IMG/VR virus record: IMGVR_UViG_3300020029_000059
Location: 1-6,046 of that record
Strand: one strand, 5' to 3'
DNA length: 6,046 nucleotides
DNA from: a virus
Position numbers and translations under genes: made by a program. Below the pieces are notes generated by a model. It saw only the letters and a list, made by a program, of their open reading frames with translations. It had not been told where the DNA came from and did no database searches. The stretch's first letter is position 1. Every line of letters begins with the position of its first letter. Shown here in pieces: positions 1-6,046 of the stretch.

Positions 1-121
1 AATGTTGCACTACGATACCGGAGTTGCTCAAGAAGCTGAAGCGTTTCACTTGATACGGCCTGCAAGACATCAGTCTCTTGCCCGTTCTGAGACAACGCAA
101 ACATACAATCTGATATTTCCG
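1..121. repeat. Left copy of the 121-nt exact direct terminal repeat (circular-genome assembly redundancy)
   Basis: Compared base by base with 5926-6046 and found identical. It lies inside the Rep coding sequence, so it is not a biological repeat of the genome. Confidence 0.95.
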
Positions 122-1613
122 GATATTGGGCACGAAGATTATAGACATCTCGTAAACTTTCATAGTCCTTTTTCTTCTCATACTCTATACCTGTTTTAAT
201 GATAAAATAAATACGACCGGAATAAGCACTAATATCAGAGCCAAAGAGAGGAAGATGCCAATTGCGGAAGAATTTATAGACATATAGGAACAATCGATAT
301 AACTTATTAATATAAGATTCAACATCGAAATCAATAGAACAGTAACCAAACCTAGTAAGGCACCGAGAAGCATGTAATATAATCTTATCATCATCAGTAA
401 GAGTAGAATTAGCCTTGAGATACTTATAATAAACACGAGCAAGATCTAGAATTGAATCCTGTCTGTAGGCAACGAATCCGAATCTCGCGATTCTCTGTGG
501 CGTTCGATGCACAGCGAGAAGAATTCGAGCAATCGCAGAACTATCATCATTGCAAGCAGATGAGAATCGTGGAAGTAAGGAACGGATATACGACATGGGT
601 GGAGTTGACCGAACACTGACGCCATTGAAGTTATAGACTCTTCCGTTAACGACAGAGTCGATTTTTTGCTCAATTTGCGCATAAGCGTCTTCACCTTCCA
701 CGTAGTCACAGCCTTTTTCAAAAAATCCAACAGACGATCTCGATTTGGGTCTAAACGCGCGGCATGAGCGATATAACAAGGGAGAAGAGCACAAGCTGTT
801 AACGTAACTCGCAACGTACGAGCCAGCTCCACCAGCGGAACGTTGGAAATCTGAACGACCGAGTTTCCAACTCTTATCGTGACAGTATCGTAAAACCTCG
901 GAGACTTTCTCCGAGTTTGTGAATAATAAGAGATGATAATGCGGGCGGAAATGCACGGGTCCGTACTCACCCACAGCGTAGAAATGTAACGTTTCATAAG
1001 AACCTAATGTTTGAAATAAATGTTTACGCAAACGTTTAATATAATTTTGGACATCAACATAGTTTAAGAAGGGAATAAGGTTATCACGACCGTATTGCGA
1101 AGAAGCGGGATAATCCGTTTTGTCAACGGCCTGCGTCTTAGTAATAAAACTACGAATAGCGTCCATACTAAGAAACCAATTATCTTTAACAGGTACATAT
1201 TCCTTAATTTCACGGTCAAACGGCACAGTGCCTTGAACCTGTTCGAAGAATATATGACGCAGCATGAAGTTATCATCACATCGATATTCAGAGACAGGGA
1301 TATATTGATGATGTTCATGACCAAAATGAATATCTCCTGAAATACCTAAGACATCCTCATAATCACTGTGAAGAACCTTACAATTCATAAGAGGAATATG
1401 AGCATTGTCATAAGTAAGAGTTACAAAATAAGAATACTTAAAAGCACTTCCAGCGGTCTTCACGCGCATGGACGCTTTTTTAGCTCTCTTATGAATACAA
1501 TAATCGCATTGACCACAATCTACGGCAATACGTGCACCAGTATATTTATTCGTAATAAACGAACGATGCTGACAATGATCAACAGCCTTAAGCAAATCAG
1601 GAGAAAATTTCAT
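1..1613 (-). CDS. VP4: Replication initiator protein (HUH rolling-circle endonuclease, VP4 / phiX174 A-like). N-terminal 537 codons plus 2 nt; the ORF continues over the circular junction to the stop at 5855-5853, for 561 aa in total.
   Basis: Hand translation from ATG 1613-1611 is open to position 1. It begins MKFSPDLLKAVDHCQHRSFITNKYTGARIAVDCGQCDYCIHKRAKKASMRVKTAGSAFKYSYFVTLTYDNAHIPLMNCK. It contains a Cys cluster (CGQCDYC), motif 1 (FVTLTY), an HUH motif GPVHFRPHYHLLLF (HYH at 941-933) and a two-tyrosine motif GSYVASYVNS (Tyr codons at 818-816 and 806-804). That last motif closely resembles the Y-x3-Y active site of phiX174 protein A. An in-frame TAA at 1622-1620 lies upstream of the ATG. 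The ORF is absent from the track only because it has no stop inside the window on this side. Confidence 0.93.
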   Translation of the reverse strand, partial: MKFSPDLLKAVDHCQHRSFITNKYTGARIAVDCGQCDYCIHKRAKKASMRVKTAGSAFKYSYFVTLTYDNAHIPLMNCKVLHSDYEDVLGISGDIHFGHEHHQYIPVSEYRCDDNFMLRHIFFEQVQGTVPFDREIKEYVPVKDNWFLSMDAIRSFITKTQAVDKTDYPASSQYGRDNLIPFLNYVDVQNYIKRLRKHLFQTLGSYETLHFYAVGEYGPVHFRPHYHLLLFTNSEKVSEVLRYCHDKSWKLGRSDFQRSAGGAGSYVASYVNSLCSSPLLYRSCRAFRPKSRSSVGFFEKGCDYVEGEDAYAQIEQKIDSVVNGRVYNFNGVSVRSTPPMSYIRSLLPRFSSACNDDSSAIARILLAVHRTPQRIARFGFVAYRQDSILDLARVYYKYLKANSTLTDDDKIILHASRCLTRFGYCSIDFDVESYINKLYRLFLYVYKFFRNWHLPLFGSDISAYSGRIYFIIKTGIEYEKKKDYESLRDVYNLRAQYPEISDCMFALSQNGQETDVLQAVSSETLQLLEQLRYRSAT

Positions 1614-1615
1614 AA

Positions 1616-1924
1616 TTATTTACGTTTATCAATAACTTGGTGACGACTACGGTGACCAAATGAAATATGAATAAATGTAGGATACAATATCAGCTGGTCA
1701 AACACATGAATATTATCCGAATATCTATGAATATGTTCAAGCAACTGATTATAAGAAGTAGAACCATAAGGCTTCATATCAATAGCTTCTCCGGTCAAAT
1801 GTTGAGAAGTAGGAACACCACCACAAGCCTTATTTTGTTCAGGAGTACGACGAGCACTAGTTATTGTAAAATGAACATTAGAAACCAACAAGTACTCAAG
1901 AAAATGTATAAGAGCATAATTCAT
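1616..1924 (-). CDS. Zn-dependent peptidoglycan peptidase, Peptidase M15 (M15A/M15_3, YcbK/VanY-like fold), 102 aa; candidate endolysin or entry hydrolase
   Basis: The sequence TSARRTPEQNKACGGVPTSQHLTGEAIDM matches the family signature S-x-R-(T/S)-x-x-x-N-x-x-x-GG-x-x-x-S-x-H-x6-D. A C-terminal His lies in FIHISFGH. No signal peptide or TM segment is apparent. The start overlaps the stop of the preceding small ORF as ATGA. Confidence 0.85.
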   Translation of the reverse strand: MNYALIHFLEYLLVSNVHFTITSARRTPEQNKACGGVPTSQHLTGEAIDMKPYGSTSYNQLLEHIHRYSDNIHVFDQLILYPTFIHISFGHRSRHQVIDKRK

Positions 1925-2004
1925 AATCCAATAGCGTTAAGGATGTAACCTAAAGCGGCAGAAACAGCTCCAATGATAATTTTCCAAATATTATTACTTT
2001 TCAT
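1921..2004 (-). CDS. 27-aa single-pass membrane peptide (MKSNNIWKIIIGAVSAALGYILNAIGL); candidate holin-like or membrane partner of the M15 peptidase
   Basis: This is an internal ATG (2004-2002) of the track ORF 1921..2145. Only these 27 codons lie outside the overlap with the 64-aa gene (apart from 11 nt). 14 of the 27 codons end in T, matching the usage of the real genes. A polar, basic N-terminus is followed by a 19-residue hydrophobic stretch. The stop TGA overlaps the peptidase ATG (ATGA at 1924-1921). Confidence 0.5.
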   Translation of the reverse strand: MKSNNIWKIIIGAVSAALGYILNAIGL

Positions 2005-2188
2005 TGCTTTGAATCTTAAGTTCAACAAAATCATTTTCCTCTTTAATCGAATCCACAATAACAATAAGACCCAATGAAGAAACTCGCTCAGAATAGCTTC
2101 CAAGACCATCGAGAGAATTGACAATATAAGGCGAAACAACATCACGACCAGTAGTTTTTTCCTTAACTGAGATAATAAATTTCTGCAT
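1994..2188 (-). CDS. Hypothetical 64-aa protein, first gene downstream of the long non-coding region
   Basis: It is an ATG-to-TAA ORF with balanced, non-hydrophobic composition (MQKFIISVKEKTTGRDVVSPYIVNSLDGLG...). It sits in the coding orientation shared by all other genes. I recognise no motif. Confidence 0.6.
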   Translation of the reverse strand: MQKFIISVKEKTTGRDVVSPYIVNSLDGLGSYSERVSSLGLIVIVDSIKEENDFVELKIQSNEK

Positions 2189-2238
2189 AATTGTGAGATT
2201 TTAAAATGTTAATAACAGTTGTATCTTCTAACTGGGAG

Positions 2239-2246
2239 CAAATATA
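2239..2246 (-). promoter_or_regulatory. Candidate Bacteroidota-type -7 promoter element TATATTTG (consensus TAnnTTTG)
   Basis: The minus strand reads ...ATAGTTTGTATATTTGCTCC..., an exact TAnnTTTG about 50 nt upstream of the ATG at 2188. No clean -33 TTTG lies at the canonical spacing; only CTTG sits about 21-24 nt upstream. Confidence 0.3.
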
Positions 2247-2273
2247 CAAACTATTTTTATAATCCCAAGAGAA

Positions 2274-2293
2274 AATCTATTTTTTTTTAGATT
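2274..2293 (-). terminator. Weak AT-rich hairpin (AATCTA-A8-TAGATT) followed by TTTCTCTT; possible terminator at the end of the structural-gene transcript
   Basis: A 6-bp stem (2274-2279 with 2288-2293) carries an 8-nt homopolymer loop and a T-rich tail on the minus strand. It sits between the structured element and the candidate promoter. The stem is weak and the loop is large. Confidence 0.25.
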
Positions 2294-2308
2294 CTACGGT
2301 AGAGTGTG

Positions 2309-2377
2309 AGTTGTGCGTTTATGGACAAGGAAAGGAGAATTCGAGAGGATAACTCGGAATTTGCTTCGCACACAACT
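2309..2377 (-). repeat. Nested stems H8 (9 bp, long-range) enclosing H9 (8 bp with one bulge)
   Basis: H8 pairs 2309-2317 with 2369-2377: on the minus strand AGTTGTGTG pairs with CGCACAACT, with one G-T wobble. H9 pairs 2338-2345 with 2353-2361 (AATTC-GAG / CTC-g-GAATT, loop AGGATAA). Confidence 0.55.
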
Positions 2378-2388
2378 AGGGGCTTCGC
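2363..2388 (-). repeat. Two copies of GCGAAGC (minus strand) 19 nt apart, each able to form the GC/GAA/GC mini-hairpin
   Basis: Plus-strand GCTTCGC occurs at 2363-2369 and at 2382-2388. The minus strand reads AAGCGAAGCCCCTAGTTGTGTGCGAAGCAAA. Confidence 0.7.
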
Positions 2389-2406
2389 TTAATTAACAAG
2401 TGGATG

Positions 2407-2422
2407 TATACAGGGGTGTATA
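2407..2422 (-). repeat. Perfect hairpin H5 (6-bp stem TATACA/TGTATA, 4-nt homopolymer loop)
   Basis: TATACA GGGG TGTATA on the plus strand, giving a CCCC loop on the minus strand. Confidence 0.6.
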
Positions 2423-2427
2423 GCCAC

Positions 2428-2449
2428 GGCAGGTCAGATAGAACCTGCC
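2428..2449 (-). repeat. Perfect hairpin H4 (7-bp stem, 8-nt loop)
   Basis: GGCAGGT cagataga ACCTGCC on the plus strand. Confidence 0.7.
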
Positions 2450-2473
2450 TTTGCGCACTCCGTGCTAAAATAC

Positions 2474-2512
2474 CGAAGCGGAACGCTTCTCTATGGAAGT
2501 CGCTCCGCTCCG
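2474..2512 (-). repeat. Long hairpin H2 (16 bp, one bulge, 6-nt loop)
   Basis: The minus strand reads CGGAGCGGAGCG-A-CTTC [CATAGA] GAAG-CGTTCCGCTTCG. It forms 14 Watson-Crick pairs plus 2 G-T/U wobbles. An alternative local fold is GAAGCG-TTC-CGCTTC (6 bp). Confidence 0.65.
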
Positions 2513-2524
2513 TTTTTCGACCAG

Positions 2525-2571
2525 GCCCTACGCGGGCGGCGGGTGTATATCGCTCAAACGCCGCGATGGGC
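2525..2571 (-). repeat. Imperfect GC-rich hairpin H1 (about 11 bp)
   Basis: Plus-strand sequence is GCCC-ta-CGCGG-g-CG ...loop... CG-CCGCG-at-GGGC. Pairs are 2525-2528 with 2568-2571, 2531-2535 with 2561-2565 and 2537-2538 with 2559-2560. It begins 19 nt after the VP2 stop codon. Confidence 0.6.
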
Positions 2572-2589
2572 TTCTAGTTCTGAAGAATG

Positions 2590-3732
2590 TCACCGACCAT
2601 TATAAATAGTAGTATTACGTGGGCCATAATCATTACGATAGATATTGGCACCAGGACGAAACGAACCAATAAAATTACCGGCACCAGCAGCAATAGAACC
2701 AATACCACGAGCAACAGATTCCCAATAATGAGTACGACTTTGTTTACGGACCAATTCAGCACCATACTCAGCAGCTTTCTGATTTGCCATAGAAGTTTTA
2801 TACTCCACATGCTTACGAAGCTTAACATTTTTATAATCATAAGTGCTATCACGATACTGCAACTCGTTAGAAGCATTAGCGGCCTTAATCAAAGAATCAG
2901 CAGTTTCAGAAGCTACACGATTATCAATCTTTTTTCCGGAAGTTTCAGCGGAGATAAGAATAGCACGCTGAATTTCAGTCTGAATTTGCTTCTCCGTAAG
3001 AGCGCCTTGAGTCTGAAGATTAACTAGTGTTTGCGCCTTAATGAACAAATCAGCTTGTTGATTCTGGTCCATATATTTATTCATAATACGCTGGGCTTCA
3101 GAATTAAGCAAAATTTGCGTTTCCTGTGCGGCCGAAATACGTTCGGCAAACTGGGCATTCCTCAGATTTTGAGCTTCAGTAGACTGGTCCAGAGCAGCAG
3201 AAATACGACCTGTTTCATTATTCCAGTAACCAGAAGAACCAATAGCCAGATTTTTCCAATTAGTAAGGCCTCTATAATAATCAGACAAAAGAGGAGTTAC
3301 GGTATCAGTCTGACGCGCACGAGAACCTGATTCGTTAGCTGCGGCTTCTGAGGCCTTGGCCTGAGCAAGAGAAGCAAGAGATTCAAAAACACCAGAAAAA
3401 TTAGGTTTATAAGCTTGCATACTAGGAACAGGAGCAGCAGTAGCAGCAGCTCCGCCAGAGGCAGGAGACCTAGAACCAGCCATAGCGGCAGAACCCTGAA
3501 CAAATGGGTTCAAACCGCGAGAAATCATAGCATTGGGAGAATTATAAGCATTATTCATACCCCACATCTGTTGCTGCCAATCACGCTGAATCTGAGCTTG
3601 CTCAGCATTAAATGCATTTTGCTCACGCATCATACGGAGATTAACCTTATTCTGATGATTCTGATTAGCCATGCCGACAATATTATCGGTAAGGTTTCCT
3701 ACAGAAGAAGCAATAGCGTCAAACAAGCCCAT
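2590..3732 (-). CDS. VP2: Minor capsid / DNA pilot protein (VP2, phiX174 H-like), 380 aa
   Basis: The N-terminus MGLFDAI...MMREQNAFNAEQAQIQRDWQQQMWGMNNAYNSPNAMISRGLNPF matches the conserved N-terminal block of microvirus VP2/pilot proteins (N-F-N-A-E-x-A-Q-x-x-R-D-W-Q...GLNP). A Gly/Ala/Ser-rich linker follows, then a long Q/A/E-rich stretch that is presumably helical, as expected for a tube-forming pilot protein. The start overlaps the upstream stop (TAATG). Confidence 0.88.
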   Translation of the reverse strand: MGLFDAIASSVGNLTDNIVGMANQNHQNKVNLRMMREQNAFNAEQAQIQRDWQQQMWGMNNAYNSPNAMISRGLNPFVQGSAAMAGSRSPASGGAAATAAPVPSMQAYKPNFSGVFESLASLAQAKASEAAANESGSRARQTDTVTPLLSDYYRGLTNWKNLAIGSSGYWNNETGRISAALDQSTEAQNLRNAQFAERISAAQETQILLNSEAQRIMNKYMDQNQQADLFIKAQTLVNLQTQGALTEKQIQTEIQRAILISAETSGKKIDNRVASETADSLIKAANASNELQYRDSTYDYKNVKLRKHVEYKTSMANQKAAEYGAELVRKQSRTHYWESVARGIGSIAAGAGNFIGSFRPGANIYRNDYGPRNTTIYNGR

Positions 3733-4172
3733 TACTCAGCAGAGGCAGATGCGGAATCCGGAGACGGCGCTGCCTTATTCTCTGCCAACATAGACTCGGC
3801 ATAAGCCGATAACTCAGATTTCTCATTAGCCAACTGCCATAATACAGCCTGTCGCTCAGACATTGTCTGACAGTGCCGAGAAATGACACAATCAAACCGT
3901 TGCTCGTCAGTCATACCATCCATGACAGTAGACTGAGTAGGATGCATCTGAGCAATAATGTTCTGGACATTCATATCACCAAGCAAACGACGATATTTCT
4001 CCTGATTCAATAGAATCTGCGTCATATCGACTTGAATCAAATCGCCATCAATAGTTTCATCGTACATAACTGAATCATACACAGACTGTTGATAACACGG
4101 GTGGCCCTCAATCAATTCGGGAACAACCTCATTTTTAATATAACCGGAATTTTTATAAGCAAAATTTCTCAT
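3732..4172 (-). CDS. Hypothetical 146-aa protein between VP1 and VP2; size and position fit an internal scaffolding (VP3-like) protein, but the function is unverified
   Basis: It is a clean ORF in the shared orientation, 12 nt after the VP1 stop. Its stop overlaps the VP2 start by 1 nt. It is acidic and ends in a low-complexity tail (AAPSPDSASASAE). I recognise no diagnostic motif. Confidence 0.7.
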   Translation of the reverse strand: MRNFAYKNSGYIKNEVVPELIEGHPCYQQSVYDSVMYDETIDGDLIQVDMTQILLNQEKYRRLLGDMNVQNIIAQMHPTQSTVMDGMTDEQRFDCVISRHCQTMSERQAVLWQLANEKSELSAYAESMLAENKAAPSPDSASASAE

Positions 4173-4184
4173 AACAGCACAAAA

Positions 4185-5840
4185 TTAATAAGGTAAACCG
4201 TTTCTATCCAAGTTCTGCACAGCATATACTTGAAAGTTAACATTACACAATAACTGGTCAAATGCGACAGAACAGTTAGCAGCATCAATCTGAGGGACAA
4301 AAATAGAATTAAGCTGTTGGGGGCGAACCTTCATCGACTGATATGACCAAGCACCGGAAGAGGTCAATACTTGCCAGCCGTCAAGGGGAGCAGCCCAAGA
4401 TTGATAAGCAGCACCAGCACGGAATCCGGCGTGGACAGTATCAATATTAGACTTCCACTGCCAATAACGGAGATTATAGCCAAGAGAACCGGAAACATTA
4501 CGACCAGGATTATTCTGAAGATTCAGAGCGGGAACAGCTTGCATACCAAGCTGGTCAAATGCAGGTTGTGGAAAATCAGATATAGCAGTCACAGTCAACT
4601 GAGGAGCCTGACCTGTCAAATTCCAGTCCAGCAGAGGTACAGCGTGATAAACACACATAATCACTTGATGCTCAGCGCCACAATCATAAGTAATAACATG
4701 ACCAGAATTGCTAGATACACCTTTACCGGCAATAGAAGCTTGAGAGGAATCGGTATCAAGGTTAGTATTGACTACCTCGTTAATATTAATAACACTAGAC
4801 CAGCCTCCAATATAATGGGCATGATTTCCCATATATTCAGGAGCCTTAATACCGAATTGGGCGGCCATCTGGTCTGAATAGTCTTTGCTAGAGAATTGAA
4901 CTACTTCTTTCCAACGTTGAAGGTATTCAGTTGCTCGAATTGAAAGAGCAGAGAGATCAGAATTAGCAGATGAAGGTACAACGTTGTTAGAACCAGTCGG
5001 ATCGCTAACCGTAGCCGATAAAGAAGGTAAAACAGCTACGCTACCATACTGAGAAGAAGGAAGCATACCCATAAAATAATCCTTAGGATAGTTCGCATAG
5101 CGGAGCTGAATCATATCCGTAACTAAAGAAATCTGACCAGTACCAGACCAATAGTCAACATTATAGGCATAAGCCTTATGTTTTTCCCACTGAGAATTAC
5201 TGAAGAAGTCATAATAAATCTTCTGATAAGCAAGGAACGGAAGAGCATTAACAATCTGTGAATTCTGGTAAACCAGAGGATTGTCAGAATCACCAAGACT
5301 ATCAACACCTAGATATTTCTGAGTAATAGCAGCCTTAGCTACATTGGAAGAGGCAATCAAAGAACCATAACCAAGCAAATCAAGCAACTTGCAAGAACCA
5401 TAGACAATAGGAAGTCCTGCATCATCACGAGTATTAGTCTGGTCACCGGCATTAGCCGTCTGTAAAAACTGATTAAAAATACTCAGAGAAATATTAGGCA
5501 CAGAAGTAAGTGCAGTCGTATTCGTAGTAGAACTAGACGCACTAGTCATATAATCGGTCATCTGAGTAAACGCCTGTGGTAGCGCACGAGAAATAAGGCG
5601 TAACGGCACAGCGTAAAAATCATAATATTCCTTGATACGAGTATAAGCAGCCGTATTAACCGGAACAGTACGGGTAAACCAGTCCGAAGAAATACGATAC
5701 TTAGTACCGGGAATAGCAATCTGCCAAAAGCAGGGAAGAATCTCACCAACTTTAGCAGTAAATAGTTTTTTCGAACTTAAGTCGAAGGAAGACCGATGGG
5801 TAGGAATCTTAGCTCGGTCTAAAGGATTAAAATCACTCAT
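4185..5840 (-). CDS. VP1: Major capsid protein (VP1, phiX174 F-like jelly-roll), 551 aa
   Basis: The N-terminal block HRSSFDLSSKKLFTAKVGEILPCFW...TRIKEYYDFYAVPLRLI resembles the conserved start of Microviridae VP1, particularly the gut/Bacteroidota-associated Alpavirinae-like type. It is the largest structural ORF and ends ...NLDRNGLPY. Confidence 0.92.
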   Translation of the reverse strand: MSDFNPLDRAKIPTHRSSFDLSSKKLFTAKVGEILPCFWQIAIPGTKYRISSDWFTRTVPVNTAAYTRIKEYYDFYAVPLRLISRALPQAFTQMTDYMTSASSSTTNTTALTSVPNISLSIFNQFLQTANAGDQTNTRDDAGLPIVYGSCKLLDLLGYGSLIASSNVAKAAITQKYLGVDSLGDSDNPLVYQNSQIVNALPFLAYQKIYYDFFSNSQWEKHKAYAYNVDYWSGTGQISLVTDMIQLRYANYPKDYFMGMLPSSQYGSVAVLPSLSATVSDPTGSNNVVPSSANSDLSALSIRATEYLQRWKEVVQFSSKDYSDQMAAQFGIKAPEYMGNHAHYIGGWSSVININEVVNTNLDTDSSQASIAGKGVSSNSGHVITYDCGAEHQVIMCVYHAVPLLDWNLTGQAPQLTVTAISDFPQPAFDQLGMQAVPALNLQNNPGRNVSGSLGYNLRYWQWKSNIDTVHAGFRAGAAYQSWAAPLDGWQVLTSSGAWSYQSMKVRPQQLNSIFVPQIDAANCSVAFDQLLCNVNFQVYAVQNLDRNGLPY

Positions 5841-5852
5841 AATTAATTAATA

Positions 5853-6046
5853 TTTAAATTAAACCATACGGTTGAGAATACCATTAGCATCATTAAGTTG
5901 CTTGTGCTTAATCATATCACGACAGAATGTTGCACTACGATACCGGAGTTGCTCAAGAAGCTGAAGCGTTTCACTTGATACGGCCTGCAAGACATCAGTC
6001 TCTTGCCCGTTCTGAGACAACGCAAACATACAATCTGATATTTCCG
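5853..6046 (-). CDS. VP4: C-terminal end of the same Rep/VP4 gene (5926-6046 duplicates 1-121; the unique tail is 5925-5853)
   Basis: The frame is continuous with the 1..1613 ORF: ...LEQLRYRSATFCRDMIKHKQLNDANGYSQPYGLI, then stop TAA at 5855-5853. A 12-nt spacer separates it from the VP1 ATG at 5840. Confidence 0.9.
5926..6046. repeat. Right copy of the 121-nt exact direct terminal repeat
   Basis: Identical to 1-121. The offset of 5,925 nt is divisible by 3, and the Rep reading frame continues across the junction. Confidence 0.95.

Follow-up and report, generated by a model that had tools for sequence, protein, structure and literature searches.

We analysed a stretch of viral DNA of 6,046 nt (IMG/VR record IMGVR_UViG_3300020029_000059, positions 1 to 6,046; hereafter, the window), and in particular a folded non-coding element that lies between the gene for VP2 and the Rep operon. 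With the 121-nt direct repeat at its ends counted once (1-121 = 5926-6046), the window represents a circular microvirus genome of 5925 nt, and all of its genes are on the minus strand. The genes, open reading frames (ORFs) and one further box are as follows:

3732-2590, minus strand: VP2 (stop codon 2590-2592)
2239-2246, minus strand: TATATTTG box of the Bacteroidota -7 type, upstream of the 64-aa ORF and outside the element
2188-1994, minus strand: 64-aa ORF
1924-1616, minus strand: M15 peptidase, 102 aa
1613 through the circle junction to 5859, minus strand: Rep, 559 aa
5840-4185, minus strand: VP1
4172-3732, minus strand: 146-aa protein

The gap between VP2 and the 64-aa ORF (2189-2589) comprises 401 nt, as stated in a preliminary description of this DNA, which had been made from the letters and a list of ORFs. 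The same description had put all other gene junctions at 12 nt or less; this is wrong, because 69 nt separate the 64-aa and 102-aa ORFs (1925-1993) and 18 nt separate Rep and VP1 (5841-5858). The contrast in base composition that it reported within the gap was reproduced (52.9% GC in 2309-2571 versus 27.5% in the remainder of the gap), and the long absence of ATG codons on the coding strand extends over the minus strand of the whole gap. Its central proposal was a dense array of GC-rich hairpins at 2309-2571. We found that the element is real, with a slightly larger conserved extent (2304-2585).

Using blastn, we detected the gap in 34 GenBank records of microviruses that come from samples of dogs, humans and lemurs. 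Its position behind VP2 is unchanged there, and identity is ~80-88%; in several of these genomes the capsid genes are too diverged for megablast. Exact-pattern scans of IMG/VR yielded ~125 further contigs of ~6 kb with the element, from many samples. About 140 IMG/VR contigs contain it in total. The element is found after VP2, at the same position, in more than 130 independent microvirus contigs, which answers the question raised in the preliminary description, whether relatives carry it at this site. The family alignments are based on 127 unique full-length copies that were recovered by nhmmer. No reading frame is conserved through the element, and its lengths fall into all three classes modulo 3; the hypothetical proteins annotated there in some GenBank records were considered and rejected, there being no conserved open frame. 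Because the element is present in many GenBank and IMG/VR genomes and has no conserved frame, it is neither an assembly chimera nor a gene, and the two objections that had been anticipated (coding in relatives and a chimera with host DNA) do not hold. ARAGORN detected no tRNA or tmRNA in the region, and Rfam cmscan at E values up to 10 returned chance-level matches only, the sole one inside the region being mir-383 with 17 bits. Neither Rfam nor the literature that we searched contains a family or paper describing the element, in agreement with the earlier statement that no such element is defined for gut microviruses.

Folding of 2300-2589 was compared to that of dinucleotide shuffles. The z-scores for the minus strand are -4.94 with RNA parameters and -3.94 with DNA parameters, and none of 200 shuffles was as good; folding of the plus strand is weaker (-2.79 and -3.07, respectively). 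Both strands thus surpass their shuffled controls, the minus strand most clearly. Base pairs were derived from mutual information and from the alignments, and the curated structure was scored on 53 representatives with less than 92% identity. We found that 96.7% of the cells are paired, and that 22 pairs and 163 cells have changes on both sides. These values were reached in none of 500 shuffles, while controls in which the structure was slid gave at most 7 pairs and 28 cells. The conservation and covariation of the stems are therefore supported, although with a revised fold. The element is also the most conserved stretch of the genome (identity 0.89, compared to 0.80 for Rep and 0.75 for VP1), a comparison that is biased because the genome set was selected by the element itself.

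The features of the element are listed below, with the supported helices; pair numbers are positions counted from 2589 on the minus strand, and sequences are those of that strand:

2304-2585, minus strand (coding and packaged strand): whole conserved structured element (127 unique homologues, covariation, folding z-scores)
2549-2567, minus strand: P1 hairpin, ATCGC/GCGAT with a 9-nt loop (23-27/37-41); pair 26-38 is GC in 105, AT in 15 and CG in 5 sequences
2543-2550, minus strand: unpaired invariant ATATACAC (invariant columns of alignments A1 and A2; direct repeat D2)
2525-2541, minus strand: two interleaved helices (49-51/57-59 and 53-56/62-65); pair 49-59 is CG 118, GC 5, TA 4; pair 54-64 is CG 123, GC 3; pair 56-62 is CG 123, TA 4
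2502-2508, minus strand: mini-hairpin mh1, GCGGAGC (GCGAAGC in 11 relatives)
2475-2489, minus strand: P2' hairpin, GAAGCG-TTC-CGCTTC, 6 bp (101-106/110-115); pair 102-114 is GC 78, AT 43; the loop is free to vary
2455-2465, minus strand: P3 hairpin, GCAC-GGA-GTGC with a cGGAg triloop (125-128/132-135); pair 127-133 is AT 99, GC 28; loop variants exist
2428-2449, minus strand: P4 hairpin (141-147/156-162); four pairs with changes on both sides
2415-2422, minus strand: second copy of the ATATACAC motif, TATACACC (direct repeat D2)
2407-2422, minus strand: P5 hairpin (168-173/178-183), optional; deleted in 16 of 127 sequences
2397-2402, minus strand: hinge between two modules; insertion hot spot in relatives, with inserts of 30-140 nt (alignment A2, columns 201-390)
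2300-2398, minus strand: 3' domain, a three-way junction (113.8 bits in the window with the covariance model R1, see below)
2382-2388, minus strand: mini-hairpin mh2, GCGAAGC; distant stems around GAA are GC/GC, GT/AC, AC/GT and AT/AT
2370-2377, minus strand: 5' arm of P7, AGTTGTGT, pairing with 2309-2316 (213-220/274-281); 217-277, 218-276 and 219-275 covary, and T220.G274 is invariant
2363-2369, minus strand: mini-hairpin mh3, GCGAAGC, stacked directly on P7 (221-222/226-227); outer pair GC 70, CG 40, AT 9
2338-2361, minus strand: P9 hairpin (229-237/245-252) with a partly conserved loop, TTATCNT; 8 of 8 pairs covary in the distant set
2316-2329, minus strand: unpaired junction motif CTTGTCCATAAACG (core CTYGTCY), a candidate priming or nicking site
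2309-2316, minus strand: 3' arm of P7, GCACAACT (covariation)
2304-2308, minus strand: conserved 3' tail CACAC (consensus SACAS)

The hairpins that had been proposed at 2455-2465, 2428-2449 and 2407-2422, as well as the nested pair at 2309-2377, do exist and have the support of covariation, whereas two other stems had to be revised. The outer GCCC/GGGC helix of the former H1 (19-22/62-65) is disrupted by variants that are compensated at 54-64 and 56-62; the same variants preserve 53-56/62-65. The interleaved helices can be read as a compact pseudoknot of the H type or as two hairpins that exclude each other. The former H2, with 16 bp, is confined to the subgroup of the window: A.C is found at 86-108 in 35 sequences, and the helix is impossible in one subclade. 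In its place, covariation favours P2' (2475-2489) together with the GCGGAGC mini-hairpin (2502-2508), and pair 102-114 switches cleanly between A-T and G-C. In one subclade P2' is swapped for a mini-hairpin GCGNAGC, with A, T or C as the middle base, and a conserved GGTAnTTTAGC (2464-2474) follows P2'. A long-range helix suggested by RNAalifold (79-88/202-211) conflicts with the mini-hairpins and was rejected; there is no evidence for it, because all of its pairs are invariant. It should be noted that the TATACACC motif occurs twice in the same orientation, 127 nt apart (2543-2550 and 2415-2422), and that the second copy stays invariant in genomes without its P5 pairing partner; the sequences suggest that the repeat may be recognised by sequence rather than by structure.

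An important property of the fold is that it is strand-specific. In the 127 sequences we counted 264 G.T pairs versus 76 A.C pairs on the minus strand, and the T220.G274 wobble was present in all 127; therefore, the coding strand is the folded strand. In Microviridae the coding strand is the packaged strand, and the placement of the fold on packaged DNA in the preliminary description is thus supported. The mini-hairpins point in the same direction. Four hairpins of the type xCGNAGx' are found on the minus strand of the window (2502-2508, 2457-2463, 2382-2388 and 2363-2369); the two GCGAAGC mini-hairpins noticed earlier (2382-2388 and 2363-2369) are among them and covary, but the number of cGNAg hairpins is four, not two. 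The density of cGNAg hairpins is 10.6 per kb in the 127 elements, compared to 0.60 on the sense and 0.68 on the antisense strand in the remainder of these genomes, and the antisense strand of the 127 elements has 7 in total. A similar asymmetry was observed in distant genomes that were selected by VP1 (see below): the non-redundant non-coding segments contain 57 xCGNAGx' hairpins in the sense and 10 in the antisense orientation, while dinucleotide shuffles gave 11.3 +/- 3.3 for the former, with 0 of 200 as high, and coding DNA of these genomes has ~0.6 per kb on each strand. By sequence, the hairpins agree with d(GCGNAGC) and d(cGNAg), with the loops GAA, GGA, GTA and GCA and with stems that covary between GC/GC, CC/GG, AC/GT and CT/AG.

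As DNA, d(GCGNAGC) has a melting temperature of 70-76 C, the corresponding RNAs are far less stable (one RNA figure is quoted, 39 C, for the related r(GCGAAAGC)), and GNA mini-hairpins bind the single-stranded DNA-binding protein (SSB) poorly (2026 review, Kimoto and Hirao, PMC13037366). According to the same review, cGNAg motifs are found in the primase origins of G4, St-1 and alpha3, in ssiA of RSF1010 (CCGAAGG), and in the promoters of the N4 virion polymerase (PMC13037366).

Comparison to distant genomes shows that the element consists of two modules: a 5' domain (~2400-2585), which is clade-specific and replaceable, and a 3' domain (2300-2398), which is deeply conserved. The array had been described as a single unit, and this has to be abandoned, because the two modules differ greatly in phylogenetic depth. 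The distant set includes 81 microvirus genomes that were picked by a VP1 protein profile alone, with VP1 31-48% identical to that of the window; it is not biased by the element, because VP1 was the only basis of choice. An nhmmer profile of the whole element had matches in 19 of the 81 genomes, in the 3' part only. The covariance model of the 3' domain (R1; 98 positions, 20 pairs) produced full-length matches in 51 of the 81, all on the VP1-sense (coding) strand. In the R1 alignment 96.4% of the cells are paired, 17 of the 20 pairs have changes on both sides, and none of 500 shuffles reaches the covariation score; this alignment was fitted to the model, so that the counts lean towards structure, and slid controls stay far lower. 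In 14 of 14 mapped genomes the 3' domain is located between VP2 and the Rep operon, with Rep proteins that are 27-34% identical to that of the window.

In the 3' domain, P7 closes mh3 and P9, mh2 is located just upstream, and the unpaired CTYGTCY is displayed. All of these parts (mh2, P7, mh3, P9 and CTYGTCY) are kept across the distant genomes, as are a pyrimidine-rich linker and the SACAS tail. All but one of the family members (126 of 127) have CTYGTCY, as do 41 of the 48 distant sequences. The mh3 loops in distant genomes are GNA in 36 of 48 cases, with A, G, T or C as N; the remaining 12 start with G as well (11 GNNA or GNAB, and one GGTA). Judging from these sequences, the loop rule of mh3 is the DNA rule, with G and A fixed and N free in 36 of 48 loops. 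Within the family, mh3 is CCGAAGG in 33 of 127 members and GCGAAAGC in 12 relatives.

The 5' domain behaves differently. Four genomes (L118, L125, L128 and L132) keep only the last ~100 nt of the element, preceded by a terminator-like hairpin with a T-run, and another one (L116) retains mh1 and P2' alone, with a T-run behind them. The module boundary, as seen from genomes keeping the 3' domain alone, coincides with the insertion hot spot. P2' with the adjacent GGTATTTTAG was flagged by a terminator scan; one subclade lacks the T-run and has GGTACTTTAG in its place. The T-run of L116 and the terminator-type replacement modules support a terminator role for the P2' part. In the distant genomes a candidate canonical terminator was seen upstream of the 3' domain in 20 of 51 cases, versus ~11 in shuffles, a result that points clearly neither way. 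We also observed that the replacement 5' modules of L118, L125, L132 and L116 consist of a terminator-like hairpin and a T-run, and then a conserved TTCCGAAAGTA(T)CG motif. Inserts at the hinge (~2399) are carried by, among others, L085, L044, L084, L088, L041, L079, L063 and L111; several of them are a ~30-nt palindrome (CTAGATCYATTAGTAATGGATCTAGG), that of L063 contains three tandem copies of a 22-nt unit, and L111 and L128 have an insert of ~140 nt in common.

Downstream of the element, the window has a run of nine A followed by the TATATTTG box (both within 2239-2292, minus strand). In relatives the box takes the form TTTG, 19 nt, and then TAnnTTTG, while the window has CTTG 19 nt upstream of the box. 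We consider the box a putative promoter, as judged from its letters; it stands in front of the 64-aa ORF, which places the element immediately upstream of the presumed promoter region. None of the gene starts of the window has a Shine-Dalgarno sequence. Together, the TATATTTG/TAnnTTTG boxes, the lack of Shine-Dalgarno sequences and a gene order like that of Bacteroidales proviruses suggest a Bacteroidota host. It should also be noted that a GTG-initiated ORF of 74 aa (1921-2145, minus strand) overlaps the 64-aa ORF in another frame and spans the 69 nt that precede the peptidase gene. Its product appears strongly hydrophobic and is possibly a membrane or lysis protein; a 29-aa ORF is called at its position in some relatives (L258 and L259).

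Every microvirus needs a signal for the synthesis of the complementary strand. By analogy with known systems, we propose that the gap contains a composite cis-acting element whose working form is folded single-stranded DNA (ssDNA) on the packaged strand, and that this may be the complementary-strand origin; this is our leading interpretation, about which we remain slightly more doubtful than convinced. Under this model, the viral strand would enter the cell and be coated by host SSB, except for the very stable fold. The exposed junction and the unpaired motif might then recruit a host priming enzyme, the closest analogy being primase at the G4 origin, and the primer would be extended to give the double-stranded replicative form. 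The 5' module would be accessory, probably the end of a long transcript (P2' and the T-rich tail) combined with additional SSB-resistant structure; we read it in this way because some genomes substitute an ordinary terminator hairpin for it.

Several results are in favour of the complementary-strand origin: the gap is the only long non-coding region of the window, the covariation is strand-specific, cGNAg hairpins are enriched on the packaged strand, and the 3' domain is present in 51 of 81 distant genomes. Others weigh against it. The R1 model has no match in the genomes of G4 (E > 2), phiX174 (none better than E 2.3) or phiMH2K, so that the link to known origins is by analogy, not homology. 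Packaged DNA and mRNA have the same sense, and hence covariation does not tell us whether the element acts as DNA or as RNA; the invariant wobble and the pseudoknot-like arrangement are features better known from RNA. Taken by itself, the 3' domain is thermodynamically ordinary (DNA z-score -1.5). The CTYG in the unpaired motif is similar to the nick core (CTTG) of the phiX174 and pC194 Reps, and fits a plus-strand origin equally well. Finally, the assignment to a Bacteroidota host is tentative, being drawn from promoter-like boxes and from gene starts that lack Shine-Dalgarno sequences. A broader proposal concerns the 3' domain, which may be a functional family of folded ssDNA built on DNA-specific GNA mini-hairpins, and a shared replication-initiation signal (a complementary-strand or a combined minus/plus origin) of a large gut, probably Bacteroidota, lineage of microviruses, kept by compensatory evolution while Rep and capsid proteins diverged to ~30% identity. 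We put this forward with caution, doubts prevailing over confidence.

The resemblance to a nick core leads to the first alternative, in which the 3' domain is the plus-strand (rolling-circle) origin: Rep would recognise the junction, nick the packaged strand at CTYGTCY or SACAS, initiate replication on the replicative form, and terminate it on the folded strand once this is displaced. The Rep of the window has the phiX174-type HYH motif and the two-tyrosine motif YVASYVNS, its Pfam family, REP_ORF2-G2P, takes in gene II proteins of filamentous phages, and gene II origins are located in structured intergenic regions. The 3' domain always adjoins the Rep operon (14 mapped genomes), is retained when the 5' domain is swapped, and displays CTYGTCY unpaired on a conserved scaffold. 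However, the similarity of CTYG to the nick core of phiX174 and pC194 (CTTG/ATA) is partial, with TC and not AT after the G, and the origin of phiX174 lies within gene A and needs no hairpin. A search of the coding strand of the window for a phiX-like CTTGATA gave one chance-level match, inside VP1. Conservation over Reps of 27-34% identity is possible for a nick site and is not diagnostic, and this model does not account for the fact that mini-hairpins are enriched genome-wide in the non-coding parts of the packaged strand. We consider a plus-strand origin unlikely, if still a serious candidate.

Another possibility is that the element acts as RNA, either as the structured 3' end of a genome-length transcript (terminator and exonuclease protection) or as a separate non-coding RNA. 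This would agree with the best folding z-score being that of the coding strand with RNA parameters, with the invariant G.U-type wobble and the pseudoknot-like motif, and with the position of the element between the last gene and the next promoter-like box. Terminator-like features are found as well: P2' with GGTATTTTAG, the T-run that follows the same hairpin in L116, and the canonical terminator hairpin that replaces the 5' domain in four genomes. Conversely, there is no Rfam match at E values up to 10 beyond chance, and most of the loops are triloops of the cGNAg type, which are not exceptionally stable as RNA (PMC13037366). In one subclade the T-tract after P2' is not a T-run (GGTACTTTAG), and transcripts ending at P2' or at the replacement terminators would exclude the deeply conserved 3' domain from the mRNA. 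We consider an RNA role about as unlikely as a plus-strand origin; it may well apply to the 5' module, in the form of a terminator, and yet leave the 3' module unaccounted for.

A packaging signal, or another protein-binding signal on the viral strand (e.g., for a capsid-associated DNA-binding protein), would be consistent with strand-specific conservation and with the invariant unpaired ATATACAC, GGTAnTTTAGC and CTYGTCY; nothing that we found points specifically to it, we know of no packaging site in the characterised microviruses, in which packaging is coupled to Rep-driven synthesis, and we regard this option as quite improbable. Least probable of all, and very hard to sustain, is the idea raised in the preliminary description that the element is a folded ssDNA attachment site for host XerCD, as in CTX phage. 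The like has been proposed for Bacteroidales microvirus proviruses: dif-like repeats of 13 bp are reported to flank them, at a site upstream of Rep (Krupovic and Forterre, PMC3091885), and there is an insertion hot spot at the hinge, but in the provirus relative L364 the 13-nt repeat TGCCGATTAGTTT (1-13 and 6133-6145) lies beyond the 3' domain (5964-6071), 61 nt downstream of it and not part of the structure; inspection by eye revealed no canonical dif-like site (11-6-11) in the element, and long contigs with close relatives of the Rep are concatemers, not prophages.

L364 itself is a 6.1-kb microvirus provirus between the TGCCGATTAGTTT repeats, and its IMG/VR name carries an apparent isolate-genome identifier. 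Its repeat fits the dif-like sites of Krupovic and Forterre (PMC3091885) but sets them outside the fold. The reconstructed phage site of L364 would hold the palindrome GATTAGT-TT-ACTAATC, and the counterpart region of the window (~2270-2300) has a loosely similar inverted repeat, AGAATCTA-A8-TAGATTTT. Upstream of its 3' domain (5760-5870), L364 has a long hairpin with the apex CTAGCGTAGCGCAG, seen by eye as a GCGTAGC mini-hairpin; the apex contains TAGCGT, the CS-6 motif of ssoA-type plasmid origins. A scan of the genome collection for prophages with a 15-mer returned 120 matches, all of which are chance by nhmmer, a 15-mer being too short for this purpose. The long contigs with close Rep relatives were considered as prophages and rejected; they are concatemers, some of them chimeric. 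Three of them (L258, L259 and L261) are head-to-tail concatemers of 12-18 kb, and two join different strains (VP1 of 579 and 575 aa); these are probably assembly joins through shared conserved sequence such as the element. More generally, a shared conserved element may explain chimeric concatemers in assemblies of related strains.

Microviruses are among the most abundant gut phages, and to our knowledge no replication signals of microviruses have been defined outside the coliphages. The element is a testable candidate, with precise bounds, base pairs that can be broken and restored, and one unpaired motif that can be mutated. Because R1 finds the 3' domain in distant genomes, it can be used to orient and annotate metagenomic microvirus genomes. 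GNA mini-hairpins have so far been studied mostly as synthetic oligonucleotides, and the element may be among the best natural, covariation-supported DNA secondary structures that are built on them.

Among known initiation systems, the plus-strand origins of phiX174 and pC194 (CTTG/ATA) share with the element an unpaired conserved CTYG motif and a two-tyrosine Rep. In contrast to them, the motif continues with TCY and not ATA, is displayed in a structured junction, and is a candidate cleavage site. Single-strand origins of the ssoA type have an RSB site, and CS-6 (TAGCGT/A) in a terminal loop; the window has TAGCAC in the stem of P3, not in a loop. The PriA site of phiX174 and the minus origin of Ff phages are, like the element, folded intergenic DNA on the packaged strand, and they start complementary-strand synthesis. 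The Ff intergenic region is, in addition, a composite of several hairpin modules, as is the element. No homology to the phiX174 PriA site was detected (R1, none better than E 2.3 on phiX174). An analogy with the M13-type minus origin, which is recognised by RNA polymerase, had been suggested before. We saw no promoter mimic inside the element: there is no TTTG...TAnnTTTG (-33/-7) pair in 2304-2585 by sequence inspection, GGTATTTTAG is off by one fixed position, and the only TAnnTTTG box (2239-2246) is downstream of the element.

The signals ssiA and ssiB of RSF1010, which are used by the RepB' primase, resemble the element in having a CCGAAGG mini-hairpin within a hairpin; CCCGAAGGG occurs in the distant microvirus genomes. 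They are read by a plasmid-encoded primase, whereas no primase is recognisable in the window phage: comparison of Rep to Pfam and PHROGs gave the HUH domain family only. The C-terminal half of Rep was considered as a primase and rejected, since Pfam and PHROGs match the HUH domain alone; the AlphaFold model is unusable (pLDDT 33.5). As to the protein itself, residues ~185-272 match REP_ORF2-G2P, a CxxC cluster is present at 33-39, and none of the known families matches the C-terminal half (~280 residues), for which a helical structure is predicted.

The closest likeness is to the primase origins of G4, St-1, alpha3 and phiK, which are also non-coding microvirus DNA on the packaged strand, with a hairpin cluster that includes GCGNNAGC or a GNA mini-hairpin. 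The element agrees with them in being non-coding, in its packaged-strand fold, and in its stable hairpins with GNA mini-hairpins, of which the window has four. Both have a short unpaired motif 3' of a hairpin (CTYGTCY in the element; PMC13037366 for the G4 group). For example, in the GenBank record of G4 the primer (3970-3997) extends over the GCGAAAGC hairpin, and the start CTG (3996-3998) is just 3' of the hairpin. The differences are substantial as well. There is no homology in sequence or structure (R1, nothing on G4 with E below 7), the element has a three-way junction whereas G4-type origins have three tandem hairpins, it is located after VP2 and upstream of the Rep operon and not between F and G, and it is conserved over far wider protein divergence. 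Conserved intergenic hairpins with compensatory changes have been proposed, but not certified, as complementary-strand origins in reekeekee- and roodoodoo-microviruses (PMC9865509). Those are one or two simple hairpins in other clades, whereas the present element is a 280-nt structure of two modules, with a three-way junction and mini-hairpins, and with much deeper covariation support. A folded single-strand initiation signal of an ssDNA replicon is a known kind of element; what appears to be new here is its architecture, how deeply it is conserved, and its use of GNA mini-hairpins, which is supported by covariation.

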